Positions 10,159-16,672 of a stretch of 46,106 nt of DNA are shown piece by piece; the stretch's first letter is position 1, and each line of letters starts with the position of its first letter. Origin of the DNA: a virus (taxonomy: Duplodnaviria; Heunggongvirae; Uroviricota; Caudoviricetes); the IMG/VR virus record IMGVR_UViG_2563366942_000012; one strand, written 5' to 3'. Both the position numbers and the translations under genes were made by a program. The notes beneath the pieces were generated by a model. That model was not told the origin of the DNA. It ran no database searches and was given only the letters and a program-made list of their open reading frames with translations.

Positions 10159-10845
10159 ATGACCCCAATAAAAATATTTATGACTATTGCTGATTTCAAA
10201 CGGCCTAAATTGGAGCTCCCAAACGGGGCAAACAAACTACTACTGCACTCTTGCTGTGCTCCATGTTCCGGTGAAGTGATGGAGGCGCTTCAGGCCTCGG
10301 GAATCGACTACACCATCTTTTTCTACAACCCGAACATTCATCCTCAGAAAGAGTATTTAATTCGTAAGGATGAAAATATTCGCTTTGCTGAACAACACGG
10401 CGTGCCGTTTATCGATGCTGATTACGACACCGACAACTGGTTTGAACGTGCCAAAGGAATGGAATGGGAGCCTGAGAGGGGGATCCGTTGTACCATGTGT
10501 TTTGACATGCGTTTTGAGCGGACAGCGTTGTACGCTGCTGAAAATGGTTTCAGTGTGATCAGCAGTTCACTGGGCATTTCACGCTGGAAAAATATGCAGC
10601 AGGTTAACGAGTGTGGGCGGCGAGCTGTTGCGCATTATCCGGGTATGGTGTACTGGGATTATAACTGGCGCAAGCAGAGCGGCTCGTCCCGTATGATTGA
10701 AATCAGCAAGCGCGAAAAATTCTATCAGCAGGAATATTGTGGCTGTGTGTATTCTCTGCGCGATACCAATCTACACCGCAAATCTCAGGGACGCCCTCTT
10801 ATCAAAATTGGCCAACTCCACTACGGAAAAGAAGAGAAGGAGTGA
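10159..10845 (+). CDS. queH: QueH-like epoxyqueuosine reductase (DUF208 family)
   Basis: 228 aa with the HSCCAPCS cysteine motif near the N-terminus plus downstream Cys residues (CTMCFD, CGCVYS) characteristic of QueH; preceded by a 150 bp intergenic region; start codon uncertain (no clear Shine-Dalgarno). Confidence 0.6.
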
Positions 10846-11082
10846 TTTTATGGATCACCTTTCTGATTGATTTCATATTGGCGAGGTGACGTGAGTTAAG
10901 TAGAATGGCTGCGGGTGCTTGAGGCTATCTGTCTCAGGCATGAACACTGAAAGGCAGATAGAGAAAAGCCCCAGTTAACATTTCGCGTCCTGCAAGACGC
11001 TTAACATTAATCTGAGGCCCAATCTATGTCTCACAAATGTAGGTTAGCCTCTTACGTGCCGAAAGGCAAGGGGAAGCAGGCT

Positions 11083-11238
11083 ATGAAGCAGCAAAAGGCG
11101 ATGTTAATCGCCCTGATCGTCATCTGTTTAACCGTCATAGTGACGGCACTGGTAACGAGGAAAGACCTCTGCGAGGTACGACTCCGAACCGGCCAGACGG
11201 AGGTCGCTGTCTTCACAGCTTACGAACCTGAGGAGTAA
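11083..11238 (+). CDS. hok: Hok/Gef-family type I toxin (HokD/RelF-like)
   Basis: 51 aa MKQQKAMLIALIVICLTVIVTALVTRKDLCEVRLRTGQTEVAVFTAYEPEE matches the Hok family; in-frame upstream extension resembles a mok-like leader ORF. Confidence 0.8.
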   Translation: MKQQKAMLIALIVICLTVIVTALVTRKDLCEVRLRTGQTEVAVFTAYEPEE

Positions 11239-11679: not shown

Positions 11680-12735
11680 GTGCGGGTATTACTTCGACCT
11701 GTTCTGGTACCGGAACTCGGGCTGGTGATCGTTAAGCCGGGCCGTGAATCCATGCCGGTATTCCACAATACCCGGGTACTGGTGGAGCCGGAACCGAAAA
11801 GCATGCGTAATCTGCCGTCCGGGGTCGTTCCTGCCGTTCGCCAGCCGCTGGCGGAGGATAAATCATTACTGCCATTTTTCAGCGACGAACGAGTGATTCG
11901 TGCTGCTGGTGGCGCTGGCGCATTGTCTGACTGGTTACTGCGCCATGTTAAATCCTGCCAGTGGCCACACGGCGATTATCACCACAGTGAAACCGTCATT
12001 CACCGTTATGGTACCGGCGCAATGGTGTTGTGCTGGCACTGCGACAACCAGCTGCGCGACCAGACCTCCGAATCACTCGGGCAACTTGCTCACCAAAACC
12101 TGTCTGCATGGATGATTGACGTCATACGCCATGCAATGAATGGCTCGCAGGAACGGGAATTATCGCTGGCTGAATTATCCTGGTGGGCGGTCCGCAATCA
12201 GGTGGCGGACGCGCTACCGGAAGCGGTATTACGTCGTTCGCTGGGGTTGCGTGCGGAAAAAATCCGCTCAATGTACCGTGAAAGCGACATCGTACCGGGA
12301 GAGCAGACCGCCACCAGCATACTGAAGCAGCGCACAAAAAATCTTGCGCCGCTGCCTCACGCCCACCAGCAAAACCCGCCACAGGAAAAGACGGTGGTCA
12401 GCATTGCCGTTGATCCGGAGTCACCGGCTCAGTATCTCCAGCGCCAGAAATCACAACGGGAAGAGATGCCTGTATACACGCGTTGGGTAAAAACGCAGAA
12501 ATGCATGACGTGTGGCAATCAGGCAGATGATCCGCATCACATCATTGGTCATGGACTGGGAGGGATGGGAACAAAGGCTGATGATTTGTTTGTTATTCCG
12601 CTGTGCCGTAAATGCCATAGCGAACTACACGCCGGGGTAAAAGATTTTGAAGAAAAACACGGCAGCCAGCTGTTGTTGCTGATTCGTTTTTTAATGCACG
12701 CGAGAAATTCGGGTGTTCTGAAGTGGAAAGCATAA
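11680..12735 (+). CDS. Nin-region protein with C-terminal HNH/zinc-finger nuclease-like motif (DUF968-like)
   Basis: 351 aa; C-terminus has CxxC...HHIIGHG...CRKCH; immediately upstream of rusA. Confidence 0.5.
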   Translation: MRVLLRPVLVPELGLVIVKPGRESMPVFHNTRVLVEPEPKSMRNLPSGVVPAVRQPLAEDKSLLPFFSDERVIRAAGGAGALSDWLLRHVKSCQWPHGDYHHSETVIHRYGTGAMVLCWHCDNQLRDQTSESLGQLAHQNLSAWMIDVIRHAMNGSQERELSLAELSWWAVRNQVADALPEAVLRRSLGLRAEKIRSMYRESDIVPGEQTATSILKQRTKNLAPLPHAHQQNPPQEKTVVSIAVDPESPAQYLQRQKSQREEMPVYTRWVKTQKCMTCGNQADDPHHIIGHGLGGMGTKADDLFVIPLCRKCHSELHAGVKDFEEKHGSQLLLLIRFLMHARNSGVLKWKA

Positions 12736-13101
12736 ATGACTGAACGCATAGAATTTGTTTTGCCTTACCCGCCAACGGTGAACACTTACTGGCGACGTCG
12801 TGGCAGCACATATTTTGTATCAAAAGTCGGTGAGCGTTATCGCCGTGATGTGGCGCTTATTGTTCGCCAGCAGCAACTGAAATTAAACCTGTCCGGAAGG
12901 CCGGCAATAGAAATTATTGCAGAGCCACCGGATAAGCGCCGTCGTGACCTGGACAATATCCTGAAGGCACCACTGGATGTACTGACGCATGCGGGGCTGC
13001 TCATAGACGACGAGCAGTTTGATGAAATTAATATTGTGCGCGGTCAGCTTGTTCCTGGTGGGCGGTTGGGGATAAAAATCACAGAACTGGAGTACGCATG
13101 A
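12736..13101 (+). CDS. rusA: Holliday junction resolvase RusA
   Basis: 121 aa; FVLPYPPTVNTYWRRRG and RRRDLDNILKAPLDVL motifs match the RusA family. Confidence 0.85.
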   Translation: MTERIEFVLPYPPTVNTYWRRRGSTYFVSKVGERYRRDVALIVRQQQLKLNLSGRPAIEIIAEPPDKRRRDLDNILKAPLDVLTHAGLLIDDEQFDEINIVRGQLVPGGRLGIKITELEYA

Positions 13102-13787
13102 ATAACCAGTATTTACAGTTTGTTCGTGAGCAACTCATGATTGCCACCGCCGATTTGAGTGGATCAACAAAAGGGCAGCTTGAGGCCTGGCAGGAGAATG
13201 CCATGTTTGATACAGGGCGTTACAGGCGTAAAAAAATCCGGTACCGCGATGAAGTGACTGGAAAAATGATAACGCGGGATAATCCACCAATCCCGGGAAA
13301 GCAATCGCTGGCGAAGGGGGTGTCAATTCCTCTCGTCAGTCCGGTTGAGTTTTCGACATCATCGTGGCGGCGGGCTGTTCTGTCTCTTGAAGAACATCAT
13401 AAAGCCTGGTTGTTGTGGTGTTACAGCGGGAGTATTTGTTGGGAATATCAGATCGCGATAACGCAGTGGGTGTGGAATGAATTTAAAACCCGGTACGGCA
13501 CCAGAAAAATTGCAGGGAAAACGCAGGAGCGCGTGAAGAAGTTGATCTGGCTGGCGGCACAGGATGTCAGAGGATGGATTACCGGGTGTGAGGTCTACCA
13601 GAGACAGGAGCTTGCCAGACTGTGTGGAGTTAAGCCTGATAACTGGAGCCATAATTATGCGAACTACTGGCGTGAGATGTGCGATATTTTTAAGAGTCTC
13701 GATAGAGAATCTGTGATTTGCACCGTGAAAATAAGAGCGCAACAAAAAGCGACTTTTTCACGACGAGATATTGCAAAAGTCAATTAA
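13098..13787 (+). CDS. Putative late-gene antiterminator Q
   Basis: 229 aa ORF directly after rusA and followed by a promoter-like element plus terminator; position and size typical of lambdoid Q. Family assignment from memory is tentative. Confidence 0.5.
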   Translation: MNNQYLQFVREQLMIATADLSGSTKGQLEAWQENAMFDTGRYRRKKIRYRDEVTGKMITRDNPPIPGKQSLAKGVSIPLVSPVEFSTSSWRRAVLSLEEHHKAWLLWCYSGSICWEYQIAITQWVWNEFKTRYGTRKIAGKTQERVKKLIWLAAQDVRGWITGCEVYQRQELARLCGVKPDNWSHNYANYWREMCDIFKSLDRESVICTVKIRAQQKATFSRRDIAKVN

Positions 13788-13789
13788 AT

Positions 13790-13885
13790 AGCGTACGTTT
13801 CGTATAAATCTGATATTTTGCCGATTTTGTACGCGATGGCAAAGTAAGAAAAAAAACTGCCGTCAGGCGGTTTTTTTTTATGCCC
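13790..13885 (+). promoter_or_regulatory. Candidate late promoter and terminator (PR'/tR'-like)
   Basis: TCAATT-17-TATAAA promoter-like hexamers directly after the Q-like gene, then A-run / imperfect hairpin / T9 bidirectional terminator-like structure around 13850..13880. Confidence 0.35.
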
Positions 13886-14001
13886 AAAATCGCGTCAGTA
13901 CAGTAAACACGCTGGTGGTTGCGAATACGGGTCTTTCAGCTTGCTGGCTTTTTCGACAAGAGTTATTGGTATGTCACGTTAACCGGAAAAAGGAAAAAGA
14001 C

Positions 14002-14199
14002 ATGCTAAAACAGCAGGATATGACAGAAACCGCCAGAGTGGTGTTTAATGAATTAAGCGTTACCGAACCGGCGACAGTCGGGGAGATAGCGCAGAATACT
14101 TACCTTTCACGCGAACGCTGCCAGTTAATACTGACTCAGCTGGTTATGGCGGGTCTGGCAGACTATCAGTTCGGTTGTTACAGACGCCTTCCGCAGTGA
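14002..14199 (+). CDS. Small winged-helix-like protein upstream of the DNA methyltransferase
   Basis: 65 aa from ATG with AAGGAAAAAG Shine-Dalgarno; followed by its own hairpin terminator. Confidence 0.45.
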   Translation: MLKQQDMTETARVVFNELSVTEPATVGEIAQNTYLSRERCQLILTQLVMAGLADYQFGCYRRLPQ

Positions 14200-14212
14200 A
14201 GGCTTTTTTATT
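14182..14212 (+). terminator. Rho-independent terminator
   Basis: GCCTTC-CGCAGT-GAAGGC perfect hairpin followed by TTTTTT. Confidence 0.6.
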
Positions 14213-14349
14213 TGTGGTAAATGGGCGGCTGGTGGGTGTTAGGGGCACTTACCAGCCATCTGCTCATGCGTTGGGTTCACAAGCAAACCTCAGGCCCACT
14301 GCTTTGCGCAAAAGCAGAATGAGCCTATCAGAGACAGGCTTAATGATCC

Positions 14350-15399
14350 ATGCTTAATACTGTAAAAATATCCAGTTGTGAGTTAATCAACGCCGACTGC
14401 CTGGAATTTATCCGGTCGTTACCCGAAAATTCTGTTGACCTGATAGTCACGGACCCGCCGTACTTTAAAGTGAAGCCTGAGGGCTGGGATAACCAGTGGA
14501 AGGGCGACGATGATTACCTGAAGTGGCTGGACCAGTGTCTGGCGCAGTTCTGGCGGGTGCTGAAACCTGTCGGAAGTCTTTACCTGTTCTGTGGTCATCG
14601 CCTGGCATCTGATATCGAAATCATGATGCGTGAACGCTTCAGTGTGCTGAACCATATTATCTGGGCGAAGCCGTCCGGACGCTGGAACGGATGCAACAAG
14701 GAAAGCCTGCGGGCGTATTTCCCCGCCACAGAGCGCATTCTGTTCGCGGAACATTATCAGGGGCCGTATCGTCCGAAAGATGCCGGGTATGCGGCGAAGG
14801 GCAGTGCACTGAAACAGCATGTGATGGCCCCGCTGATTTCTTACTTTCGTGATGCGCGCGCTGCCTTGGGGATAACGGCAAAACAGATTGCAGATGCCAC
14901 AGGAAAGAAAAACATGGTGTCGCACTGGTTCAGTGCCAGTCAGTGGCAGCTACCGAACGAAAGCGATTATCTGAAATTACAGTCGCTGTTTGCCCGGGTG
15001 GCAGAAGAGAAACATCAGCGCGGTGAACTGGAAAAGCCCCACCACCAGCTGGTGGATACGTATACGTCACTGAACCGGCAGTATGTGGAGCTGCAGAGTG
15101 AATATAAGCATCTGCGGCGGTATTTTGGTGTGACGGCGCAGGTGCCGTACACGGATGTGTGGACACATAAACCGGTGCAGTTCTATCCCGGGAAACATCC
15201 GTGCGAAAAACCGGCAGAAATGCTGCAGCAGATAATCAGCGCAAGCAGTCGTCCGGGTGACCTGGTTGCAGATTTTTTTATGGGCTCAGGTTCAACGGTA
15301 AAAGTGGCACTGGCGCTCGGGCGTCGTGCGATTGGCGTTGAACTGGAGACCGGACGTTTTGAGCAGACAGTCAGGGAAGTTCAGGATTTAATCGTTTGA
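14350..15399 (+). CDS. Orphan DNA methyltransferase (N6-adenine/N4-cytosine class, DPPY motif)
   Basis: 349 aa; catalytic motif IV DPPY near the N-terminus and AdoMet motif FFMGSGST near the C-terminus; no adjacent restriction endonuclease candidate. Confidence 0.8.
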   Translation: MLNTVKISSCELINADCLEFIRSLPENSVDLIVTDPPYFKVKPEGWDNQWKGDDDYLKWLDQCLAQFWRVLKPVGSLYLFCGHRLASDIEIMMRERFSVLNHIIWAKPSGRWNGCNKESLRAYFPATERILFAEHYQGPYRPKDAGYAAKGSALKQHVMAPLISYFRDARAALGITAKQIADATGKKNMVSHWFSASQWQLPNESDYLKLQSLFARVAEEKHQRGELEKPHHQLVDTYTSLNRQYVELQSEYKHLRRYFGVTAQVPYTDVWTHKPVQFYPGKHPCEKPAEMLQQIISASSRPGDLVADFFMGSGSTVKVALALGRRAIGVELETGRFEQTVREVQDLIV

Positions 15400-15447
15400 A
15401 ACGGATGAGATTGCAGAATTAATTACGCACCATTATTATTCTGCTCC

Positions 15448-15523
15448 CGGCCCTTTAGCTCAGTGGTGAGAGCGAGCGACTCATAATCGCCAGGTCGCTG
15501 GTTCAAATCCAGCAAGGGCCACC
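15448..15523 (+). tRNA. tRNA with CAU anticodon, ileX-like (tRNA-Ile2, lysidine) rather than tRNA-Met
   Basis: 76 nt cloverleaf: acceptor GGCCCTT/AAGGGCC, anticodon loop CUCAUAA, T-loop TTCAAAT, 3' CCA; close to my recollection of E. coli ileX. Confidence 0.8.
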
Positions 15524-15530
15524 ATCACAT

Positions 15531-15607
15531 ACCGCCATTAGCTCATCAGGAAAGAGCGCCAGCTTTCGAAGCTGGTTGCGCGGAGTTCGGGTCCCCGAAG
15601 GCGGTCC
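15531..15607 (+). tRNA. tRNA-Arg-like (UCG anticodon), with non-canonical features
   Basis: 77 nt cloverleaf with anticodon loop UUUCGAA and 3' CCA, but one mismatch each in acceptor and T stems and an unusual T-loop TTCGGGT; middle tRNA of the Stx-phage-style ile-arg-arg trio. Confidence 0.55.
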
Positions 15608-15620
15608 ATTATCTGTATCC

Positions 15621-15697
15621 TGCGTTGTTAGCTCAGCCGGACAGAGCAATTGCCTTCTAAGCAATCGGTCACTGGTTCGAATCCAGTACAACGCGCC
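15621..15697 (+). tRNA. tRNA-Arg (UCU anticodon)
   Basis: 77 nt; acceptor GCGTTGT/ACAACGC, anticodon loop CUUCUAA, T-loop TTCGAAT, 3' CCA. Confidence 0.85.
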
Positions 15698-15710
15698 ACA
15701 CTTATTTTCC

Positions 15711-15742: not shown

Positions 15743-15957
15743 CTCACAATTCAGGCGGTTGACTGTTGTCTGGTTTGCGGGGAGTTTGTTAAAAGAAACT
15801 GGCATGGTGAATCCCCCTGTGCGGAGGGGCAATCAGCGAGTAGGTATATGGGATAATCGCGGATTCAGGTGCTGGTACTGAATTCACCGGGAGGCACCCG
15901 GCACCATGCAATGGCACATAGCGCCACTCTCCAGCCCCTCTCCGGAGGGGCTTTTCT
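15743..15957 (+). repeat. Structured repeat unit, copy 1, ending in a strong intrinsic terminator
   Basis: Shares CTCACAATTCAG...GTTGAC...GGTGAATCCCCCTG(T/A)GCGGAGGGGC...CACCGGGAGGCACCCGGCACCATG...AGCCCCTCTCCGGAGGGGCTTT with copy 2; three GC-rich hairpins, the last being a perfect 8 bp stem plus T-run. Confidence 0.7.
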
Positions 15958-16146
15958 GTGCCGGATACATCACAGTTTCTGGAACCTTAGGTACTACAGT
16001 ATCAGTCAGGGTGCTATATTTTCAGATGTGATGAAAGCCTGTCAGCAGGCAGGGCGTATCGGAAATGACCCAGTAGAGAAAACGTTGACTCAGATACCGG
16101 TGCTGAGTTACCGGGAAACCGGCATCACATGACCGCTATCCTTCCA

Positions 16147-16176
16147 GGCCCATCCGCTCCGGTGGGCCTTTTTACT
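16147..16176 (+). terminator. Rho-independent terminator between the two repeat copies
   Basis: AGGCCCA-TCCGCTCCGG-TGGGCCT hairpin followed by TTTTT. Confidence 0.6.
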
Positions 16177-16210: not shown

Positions 16211-16443
16211 CTCACAATTCAGTAAGTTGACAGTTGCCTGTCAGACTGGGCATTTGTTAAAAAAATTTCGCATGGTGAATCCCCCTGAGCGGAGGGGCGA
16301 CTGGTGACGGTATAATCTCTGATTATCAAAACGAGAATGACGCGGGTTTAGTGGCACCGGGCTGAACTCACCGGGAGGCACCCGGCACCATGTGCATGAT
16401 GATACAGATACGCGGCTTTAGCCCCTCTCCGGAGGGGCTTTCT
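16211..16443 (+). repeat. Structured repeat unit, copy 2, ending in the same terminator hairpin
   Basis: Imperfect direct repeat of 15743..15957 with the same hairpins; contains TTGACA and a perfect TATAAT hexamer (not at consensus spacing to each other). Confidence 0.7.
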
Positions 16444-16672
16444 TATGGACAAAAAAAGCCCGCGCTGGGAGACGCGGGCGGCAAGGAATAAACAATAAAA
16501 CGTGAAGTAATATTTCAGCTGGCGAATAATACCCCATAGTAATCACTCTGCGCAACTGCGCGGTCTTTTTCGAATTGCGGGCTGTAGTCTCCCTTCTGCC
16601 ATTGTCCTGTAACTTCCGGACTTCAGCCTGCTCCTTATCTGACTCACAACATTATCCCGCCCGGGAGGATTC

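Follow-up and report, generated by a model that had tools for sequence, protein, structure and literature searches.

A conserved structured leader and two terminator-like hairpins precede an M.EcoGII-family adenine methyltransferase gene in a lambdoid Escherichia coli prophage

How might a prophage carry a DNA methyltransferase that is harmful to its own host, hold it silent in the lysogen and still deploy it when needed? M.EcoGII, a prophage-borne methyltransferase (MTase) of 349 amino acids (aa), methylates adenine in any sequence context, is unexpressed in its own lysogen and is deleterious when expressed constitutively (PMC5778455), and published work leaves open how a self-toxic enzyme of this type is silenced and then switched on. 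The same question is raised by the viral record IMGVR_UViG_2563366942_000012, a stretch of 46,106 nucleotides (nt; hereafter the window) that encodes an enzyme of this family downstream of a small winged-helix gene. The locus suggests a layout in which two serial terminators lead into a conserved structured leader, with the small winged-helix gene as an optional component. We consider it likely that the cassette is an anti-restriction module heading the late operon of a lambdoid E. coli prophage that lies next to ompW and is Shiga toxin (Stx)-phage-like but stx-negative, and that it combines an M.EcoGII-family enzyme, gating by hairpins and the antiterminator Q, a structured leader and an accessory small gene.

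The MTase gene occupies positions 14350..15399 on the + strand and encodes a predicted β-class N6-adenine DNA MTase of 349 aa. The protein matched PF01555 (N6_N4_Mtase; E = 2.6e-44, residues 29-340) and the PADLOC model MTase_II (E = 2.3e-166). A DPPY motif was located at residues 35-38 (nt 14452-14463) and an FxGxG motif (FMGSG) at residues 310-314 (nt 15277-15291), in agreement with the DPPY and C-terminal S-adenosylmethionine (SAM)-binding motifs listed in the initial annotation; the order DPPY, central target recognition domain (TRD), FxGxG is that of the β class. Comparison with M.EcoGII over the full length gave 329 identical positions out of 350 (~94%), a figure to be read with some care as the reference (PMC11551740, Table S1) was machine-read text with a few evident reading errors. 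Identity was 94.8% with the MTase of phage 1720a-02, which has been named as a very similar M.EcoGII homolog (PMC5778455), and 70% with SUPREM, an engineered ancestral relative that is largely non-site-specific on RNA. The closest solved structures were distant β-class MTases only (E ~1e-25). On these sequence comparisons the window MTase is a member of the M.EcoGII family and, because of the ~94% identity and the shared motif order, would be expected to methylate the N6 position of adenine in any sequence context; its target specificity, which the initial annotation had left unassigned, can be predicted from M.EcoGII (PMC5778455). Genes of this kind are better named M.EcoGII-like non-specific adenine MTases than "site-specific DNA-methyltransferase".

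No endonuclease gene was identified near the MTase, whose neighbours encode DUF968, RusA, Q, three tRNAs, a SASA esterase and lysis proteins, and the description of the enzyme as an orphan stands. Of the two roles previously offered for it, protection of phage DNA is supported as a likely anti-restriction role. An epigenetic role in the lysogen is unlikely, given that M.EcoGII is silent in the lysogen and harmful when expressed and that the window MTase lies behind two terminators. For the same reason, the absence of a new methylation motif in the lysogen is a flawed argument against the prophage enzyme, since a null result is expected for a silent, motif-less MTase. Related DNA was present in 2443 of 5426 complete E. 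coli genomes, and matches to the DNA of the cassette were found in 292 phage records, mainly of Stx2 phages. M.EcoGII serves widely as a reagent, and enzymes of its family occur in nearly half of complete E. coli genomes as well as in Stx phages. The MTase is a further member of this well-studied family, and the cassette is an ordinary one for E. coli prophages; the leader appears to be undescribed.

The MTase is probably a late gene, positioned downstream of Q and a tR'-like terminator. The Q gene, at the start of the late operon (13098..13787, + strand; PF06323, E = 1.4e-83; phrog_304), is labelled 'bacteriophage antitermination protein Q' by RefSeq in a 99.8%-identical locus. A terminator scan detected a tR'-like intrinsic terminator at 13849..13880 on the + strand, of the form A8 - GCCGTCAGGCGG - T9, with a predicted G+C-rich hairpin at 13859-13871 followed by T9; this element was also recovered as inverted repeat I1, gave a fold of -12.3 kcal/mol (z = -3.9) and is kept in related loci. 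The same scan detected a second terminator-like hairpin at 14186..14212 on the + strand (GCCTTC-CGCAGT-GAAGGC plus T6AT3; fold -8.9 kcal/mol), in which the GCCTTC/GAAGGC stem at 14186-14203 is followed by TTTTTTATTT. This is the hairpin terminator that the initial annotation had placed after the small gene. In the region of this second hairpin the scan returned 15 terminator-like sites compared with 4.2 expected, and the stem is kept across genera by compensatory changes (GCCUCC/GGGGGC, GCUGCC/GGCAG). The stop codon of the small gene falls at the boundary between the loop and the 3' arm in the window, and always in or beside the loop in relatives. Judged by eye, a G+C-rich hairpin with a U-rich tract stands immediately 5' of the leader in ~60 of 71 distinct upstream contexts; for N15, phiKO2, PY54 and phiARM81ld, the hairpin before the leader and the tR'-like terminator are one and the same. 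The deposited N15 and phiKO2 records carry a late promoter and a terminator annotated just 5' of the homologous MTase gene, after which come holin and lysin genes.

In Stx phages, the promoter PR' is constitutive and its transcript ends at tR' unless Q modifies the polymerase (PMC7547250). From the layout of the window and by analogy with lambdoid biology, transcription of the MTase would be gated in a comparable manner. The two hairpins in series (13849-13880 and 14186-14212) would keep the MTase untranscribed in the lysogen, a silence that we infer because the gene sits behind Q and two terminator-like hairpins; after induction, it would be read only by Q-modified, terminator-resistant RNA polymerase. 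Absence of transcription in the lysogen would account for the silence and toxicity reported for M.EcoGII. Progeny DNA would become hypermethylated before packaging and then be resistant to many restriction enzymes in the next host.

The gap between the second hairpin and the MTase is 137 nt long and contains a structured 5' leader of the MTase mRNA (14217..14349, 133 nt, + strand), recognized from conservation, RNAalifold and a covariance model, R1. With locus L014 as the reference, related loci were 80-92% identical over the 130 nt 5' of the MTase start codon in 9 of 12 comparisons, compared with 55-75% for the small gene and 61-77% for the MTase; leaders diverged most in the window type, at 72% identity, and in the Providencia type, at 58%. 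In most comparisons, the leader was better conserved than either flanking gene. RNAalifold returned a three-way junction made up of P1 (UGGGC/GCCCA; 14222-26/14294-98), a long P2 hairpin (14227-38/14246-57) and P3 (14261-68/14278-85). Two further hairpins were added by inspection, P4 (14299-305/14311-17) and P5 (14320-26/14336-42), the latter ending eight nt before the AUG; all five helices are on the + strand. Folded as a single sequence, the window leader formed P1, P2, P4 and P5 (z = -3.5).

The structure is supported by covariation. In a MAFFT alignment that was not fitted to any model (33 distinct sequences), pairing holds in 91.5% of cells, compared with 30-47% when the partners were slid, and the observed covariation was reached by none of 500 shuffles. 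Model R1 scored 128 bits in the window (E = 3.9e-34), its sole hit in 46 kb. Across 56 distinct matches, the paired share of cells is 94.8% (30-45% for the slid controls), and double changes affect 21 of the 35 pairs, values that lean towards structure because this alignment was fitted to R1. The model also found the element upstream of MTases of 50-60% identity in phiKO2, N15, PY54, PhiR46_1, VHML, MAR, Val-yong3 and phiARM81ld; it was not found in phiO18P or an archaeal virus. Among the distant phages, 81.7% of cells pair (30-42% in the controls), double changes occur at 28 of 35 pairs, and the arms of P2 and P4 are fully swapped. Conserved G-U pairs place the leader RNA on the + (MTase) strand; an RNA on the reverse strand was rejected, as the same pairs would turn into C-A mismatches.

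The position of the leader is equally regular. In a scan of viral contigs, nearly all loci had the MTase start codon ~130 nt past the point at which the search pattern begins. In Val-yong3 the leader ends at the start codon of a 38-aa open reading frame (ORF) that precedes the MTase; its end in phiARM81ld is where a gene annotated as "Com-like translational regulator" begins, and this gene overlaps the start of the MTase. The leader is a mark of the 5' end of the MTase operon, because in these two phages it ends at the first operon gene. The Com-like gene of phiARM81ld corresponds to L147 1329-1544; the Val-yong3 ORF (L155 732-848) is annotated 'RNA polymerase subunit P', ends 22 nt before the MTase and is possibly a zinc-ribbon protein. 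The presence of small genes between leader and MTase in phiARM81ld and Val-yong3 suggests that this MTase family is controlled at the level of translation. No obvious Shine-Dalgarno sequence precedes the MTase; in the enteric group, only a UGAUC is conserved before the AUG. Searches of Rfam 15 (E <= 1) with the leaders of the window, L005, L020 and L138 gave no match, the only Rfam hits in the region being the tRNAs, STnc100 and weak isrK/STnc370 matches around tR', and no description of the motif was found in the literature searched.

Both the conserved structure of the leader and its linkage to the MTase are observed features of these loci. The leader would control the translation or stability of the harmful MTase; our opinion, which is a guess, is that it most likely gates MTase translation. 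More tentatively, and with the balance tilted slightly against so broad a proposal, it may represent an undescribed class of cis-regulatory RNA for the operons of non-specific adenine MTases in lambdoid phages, the telomere phages N15, phiKO2 and PY54, and VHML-like phages. Such a class would always lie between a terminator and the start codon of the first operon gene, and would gate translation of the toxic enzyme in response to a metabolite, such as SAM or S-adenosylhomocysteine, or to a protein, whether the MTase, the winged-helix protein or a Com-like one. If the leader is a real regulatory RNA, it would be a new motif with a clear assayable phenotype, and it might serve as a tight off-switch for expressing toxic methyltransferases.

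The small gene between the two hairpins (14002..14199, + strand) encodes a 65-aa protein that matched phrog_331 (E = 1.4e-37) and gave sub-threshold Pfam winged helix-turn-helix hits. The reading frame is open from a GTG at 13915 (94 aa), but this extension is not conserved among relatives; the conserved start is the ATG at 14002, with AAGGA seven nt upstream, and RefSeq annotates the same 65-aa gene in the 99.8%-identical locus. Differences among close relatives fell 353/254/1401 by codon position, with 1148 synonymous versus 481 non-synonymous codon changes, a pattern by which the small gene is truly coding and under purifying selection. The AlphaFold2 model had a confidence score (pLDDT) of 90.4 and an H-H-H-strand-strand topology, and Foldseek matched it to winged-helix domains of a generic kind, namely IclR, OhrR, SelB, Z-alpha and the N-terminal domains of O-methyltransferases (best E ~1e-3). 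We are confident that the predicted fold is a winged helix. The ribosome-binding site, the coding statistics and the model are all consistent with the 65-aa winged-helix ORF of the initial annotation, and the ORF, whose conservation in related phages had been raised as a check, is intact in nearly all related loci. A sequence search of the PDB returned nothing meaningful, and a winged helix that reads N6-methyladenine (DpnI-like) was considered and dropped, as no such entry was among the top 50 Foldseek hits. Two cysteines are invariant: C40 belongs to the recognition helix, C59 to the wing. The family comprises 334 clusters, all enterobacterial (genera and prophages), and is narrow, with 61 representatives among 1.84 billion proteins. 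The NCBI label given to homologs, "TrmB family transcriptional regulator", rests on weak sub-threshold Pfam similarity, and the gene should not carry this name.

Upstream of the small gene lies a conserved block at 13940..13987 (+ strand; CTTGCTGG...GAGTTATTGGTATGTCAC), a candidate promoter or operator that is near-invariant across genera. It is kept even where the small protein is at 42-55% identity and is absent where the small gene is absent. The block resembles a sigma-70 promoter weakly (TTGCTG-17-TATTGG), was not picked up by the promoter scan and contains no palindrome. By eye, none of a LexA box, a DnaA box, an integration host factor (IHF) site or a hairpin fits it, a candidate hairpin not being kept in the window.

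Linkage between the small gene and the MTase was assessed in one genome per species, giving 24 species-level loci. In 23 of these the small gene lies 142-154 nt upstream of an M.EcoGII-like MTase (intact in 22, the copy in L022 having a premature stop); the remaining locus, L019, no longer has the MTase but retains most of the leader. The small gene was never found away from the cassette in this sample. The MTase and leader occur without it in L071, L098, L103, L139, N15 and phiKO2, and an unrelated small gene occupies the same slot in L044, L085, L114 and L129. These alternative slot genes, all on viral contigs (L044 ~1830-2180, L085, L114 and L129), encode 69-116 aa, end in ...GLVDTIGN or ...LVETITD and are followed by a hairpin; those of the L044 and L114 types had no Pfam or PHROG match. 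By this distribution, the winged-helix gene is a real conserved accessory gene that is dispensable for the MTase and leader; it is not required, because these occur without it. Placed between tR' and the leader, with its own conserved 5' block and 3' hairpin, it would have a moron-like layout, and it may either act as a regulator of the cassette or be independent of it, with expression in the lysogen.

Three roles were weighed for the small protein. The initial annotation had likened it to the controller (C) proteins of restriction-modification (R-M) systems, by which account it would recognize a C-box 5' of its own gene and set the timing of MTase expression. Its DNA-binding type, its position directly 5' of the MTase and the conserved non-coding block upstream of the gene are in keeping with such a protein, but the fold is a winged helix instead of an Xre-type helix-turn-helix (HTH), with no HTH_3 hit; the C-box-like palindrome that had been suggested upstream of 14002 is lacking at 13880-14002, where the conserved block shows no inverted symmetry; no endonuclease is present for such a protein to delay; and the MTase and leader persist in loci devoid of the small gene. 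The resemblance does not hold, and we regard a C protein as very improbable. A functional analogue of Mu Com, binding the leader RNA or the start region and turning MTase translation on or off, is improbable to a lesser degree. Mu com-mom is the paradigm of a small protein that controls translation of a toxic late DNA-modification gene, and the non-specific adenine MTase genes of Mu-like prophages likewise follow com-like genes (PMC6483171, PMC3299994). The small genes between leader and homologous MTase in phiARM81ld and Val-yong3, the exclusive association of the winged-helix gene with the cassette and the lack of a Shine-Dalgarno sequence at the MTase point the same way, and some winged-helix domains bind RNA hairpins, SelB-SECIS being among the Foldseek hits. 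Against this, loci that lack a small gene or carry an unrelated one have near-identical leaders (~150-162 bits), the protein is not a zinc finger and has only the two conserved cysteines, a terminator-like hairpin separates its gene from the leader, and RNA binding by it is purely hypothetical. Somewhat more likely than a Com-like role, although still doubtful, is that the gene is an independent moron with its own promoter and terminator, expressed in lysogens and unrelated to the MTase, its adjacency reflecting an insertion hot spot after tR'. This would fit the conserved 5' block, a 3' hairpin that would insulate the MTase, the different unrelated genes found in the same slot of other phages, the empty slot in N15 and phiKO2, and the transcription start site reported between tR' and stx2AB in phage Sp5. 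The poor sigma-70 match of the block and its absence from the promoter scan argue against it, as does a gene never seen outside the cassette in the 24 loci, which is unusual for a free-standing moron.

A further alternative concerns the leader, whose conservation at 14217-14349 could reflect a role of the DNA itself, as promoter, site of protein binding or recombination linker, or else an encoded small peptide, in place of RNA structure. The very high sequence conservation and an ATG that opens a short frame (MGGWWVL) are what such a function could produce. However, compensatory double changes occur in all five helices, including the arms of P2 and P4 that are swapped in distant phages; the conserved G-U pairs fit the + strand only; one-nucleotide indels are present, and GGWW becomes GDCK in the Providencia-type loci L020 and L052; and the promoter scan placed no + strand promoter there. 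We judge this account highly unlikely. Two coding candidates were rejected individually: the leader peptide MGGWWVL (ATG at 14221), in which the stop position and the peptide are not conserved and the base pairing is, and a 60-aa ORF across the spacer (14175-14357), which had no family hits and whose frame is broken by the indels among relatives. These indels exclude a coding function for the leader.

Several points weigh against our account of the cassette as a gated anti-restriction module, in addition to the reading errors in the M.EcoGII reference text. The non-specificity of the window allele is a prediction from an enzyme that is 94% identical. The efficiency of the second hairpin as a terminator is uncertain because of its short 6-bp stem and a U-tract that is good in the window and weak in many relatives. 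PR' was not located by the promoter scan, and the Sp5 start site, whose position between tR' and stx2AB is unstated (PMC7547250), could mean some Q-independent transcription in the region. Inspection of the leader gave no consistent pairing that would sequester the start codon, and translational control by it is a guess.

The wider context of the window is that of a lambdoid prophage. A 99.8%-identical locus over 13780-15420 adjoins ompW in E. coli APEC O18, where the prophage order is integrase, Q, lysis genes, terminase and tail genes. In the window, a DUF968/NinG-like gene (11680-12735) and RusA (12736-13101), both on the + strand, precede Q; the + strand order then runs Q, terminator, small gene, terminator, MTase, tRNAs, a 617-aa SASA esterase, holin/lysin and terminase. 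Three tRNA genes with CAT, TCG and TCT anticodons were identified by ARAGORN and by the Rfam tRNA model directly 3' of the MTase (15449..15698, + strand). The CAT gene is tRNA-Ile/ileZ in relatives and probably lysidine-modified, and the others are Arg-TCG and Arg-TCT; as in Stx phages, where their counterparts are annotated ileZ/argN/argO, the three would belong to the late transcript of the MTase. Similarity to Stx2 phages (81-95% DNA identity) runs from the tR'-like terminator downstream, which puts a mosaic junction at ~13853. Megablast matches to Stx phages start at ~13853-13873, and the Q gene upstream of the junction is of a different type (PF06323, 229 aa) from that of the best-matching Stx phages.

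Several other features were noted in the window. Between the Q stop and the tR'-like terminator, the interval 13797-13880 has a weak isrK match on the + strand (E = 0.92) and a TATAAA at 13803-13808, and an STnc370 match lies on the - strand at 13844-13920 (E = 0.0026); to judge from its sequence, 13797-13880 may be a short PR'-tR' transcript, the counterpart of StxS/IsrK. Tandem copies of STnc100 (RF02076), two strong (136 and 165 bits) and one weak (30 bits), lie at 15773-15963, 16002-16175 and 16241-16450, between the tRNAs and the esterase gene, each with a terminator-like hairpin at its end. This stretch is where the stx genes sit in Stx phages, and no stx gene is present here. In the early region, a 228-aa ORF at 10159-10845 occupies a position annotated as epoxyqueuosine reductase QueH in APEC O18, a comparison made outside the 13780-15420 interval over which the two loci were matched, and is followed by a hokD-like toxin ORF at 11026-11238; both are cargo genes unrelated to the MTase cassette.

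The cassette can be compared with several known systems. C proteins act as dimers with an Xre-type HTH, recognize palindromic C-boxes and hold back the endonuclease. The window resembles R-M systems that use them in encoding a small protein of DNA-binding type beside the MTase, but the Xre fold, the C-box and the endonuclease are all missing. A conserved RNA structure, the 'D12-methyl' motif of Weinberg et al. 2017, is reported to lie in the 5' untranslated region of a phage adenine MTase gene; that motif differs from the window leader in belonging to D12/Dam-like MTases and other hosts, and neither its Rfam family nor any other matched the leader. The lambdoid late operon of Stx phages (PMC7547250) offers the same arrangement, in which Q and tR' are followed by cargo, in this case the MTase and tRNAs, and then by the lysis genes; the window differs in its lack of stx genes, its type of Q and the mosaic junction at tR'.

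The enzyme itself is closest to M.EcoGII and M.EcoGI of the E. coli O104:H4 C227-11 prophage (PMC5778455), with which it shares the length of 349 aa, the β-class motif order, ~94% identity and a lambdoid prophage of the same E. coli/Stx-phage family. The ~20 substitutions that set it apart from M.EcoGII are mostly in the linker at 236-263, with a few in the TRD, and the published work on M.EcoGII contains no account of the small gene 5' of the MTase, of the terminators or of the leader. For regulation, the nearest comparison is with Mu com-mom and the com-like/MTase pairs of Mu-like prophages (PMC6483171, PMC3299994). Mu Com is a zinc finger with four cysteines, to which the winged-helix protein of the window is not homologous; Mom and Hin1523 are unrelated or α-class enzymes in comparison with the β-class MTase described here; and the small gene of the window, unlike that of Mu, is parted from the MTase by a terminator-like hairpin and a multi-helix leader of 133 nt. 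In both settings a harmful, broad-spectrum late modification gene stands behind a small gene, which in Mu is regulatory and acts through mRNA structure near the start codon. By this analogy, Mu com-mom, together with the com-like genes of Mu-like prophages, would be the closest regulatory precedent for the cassette.

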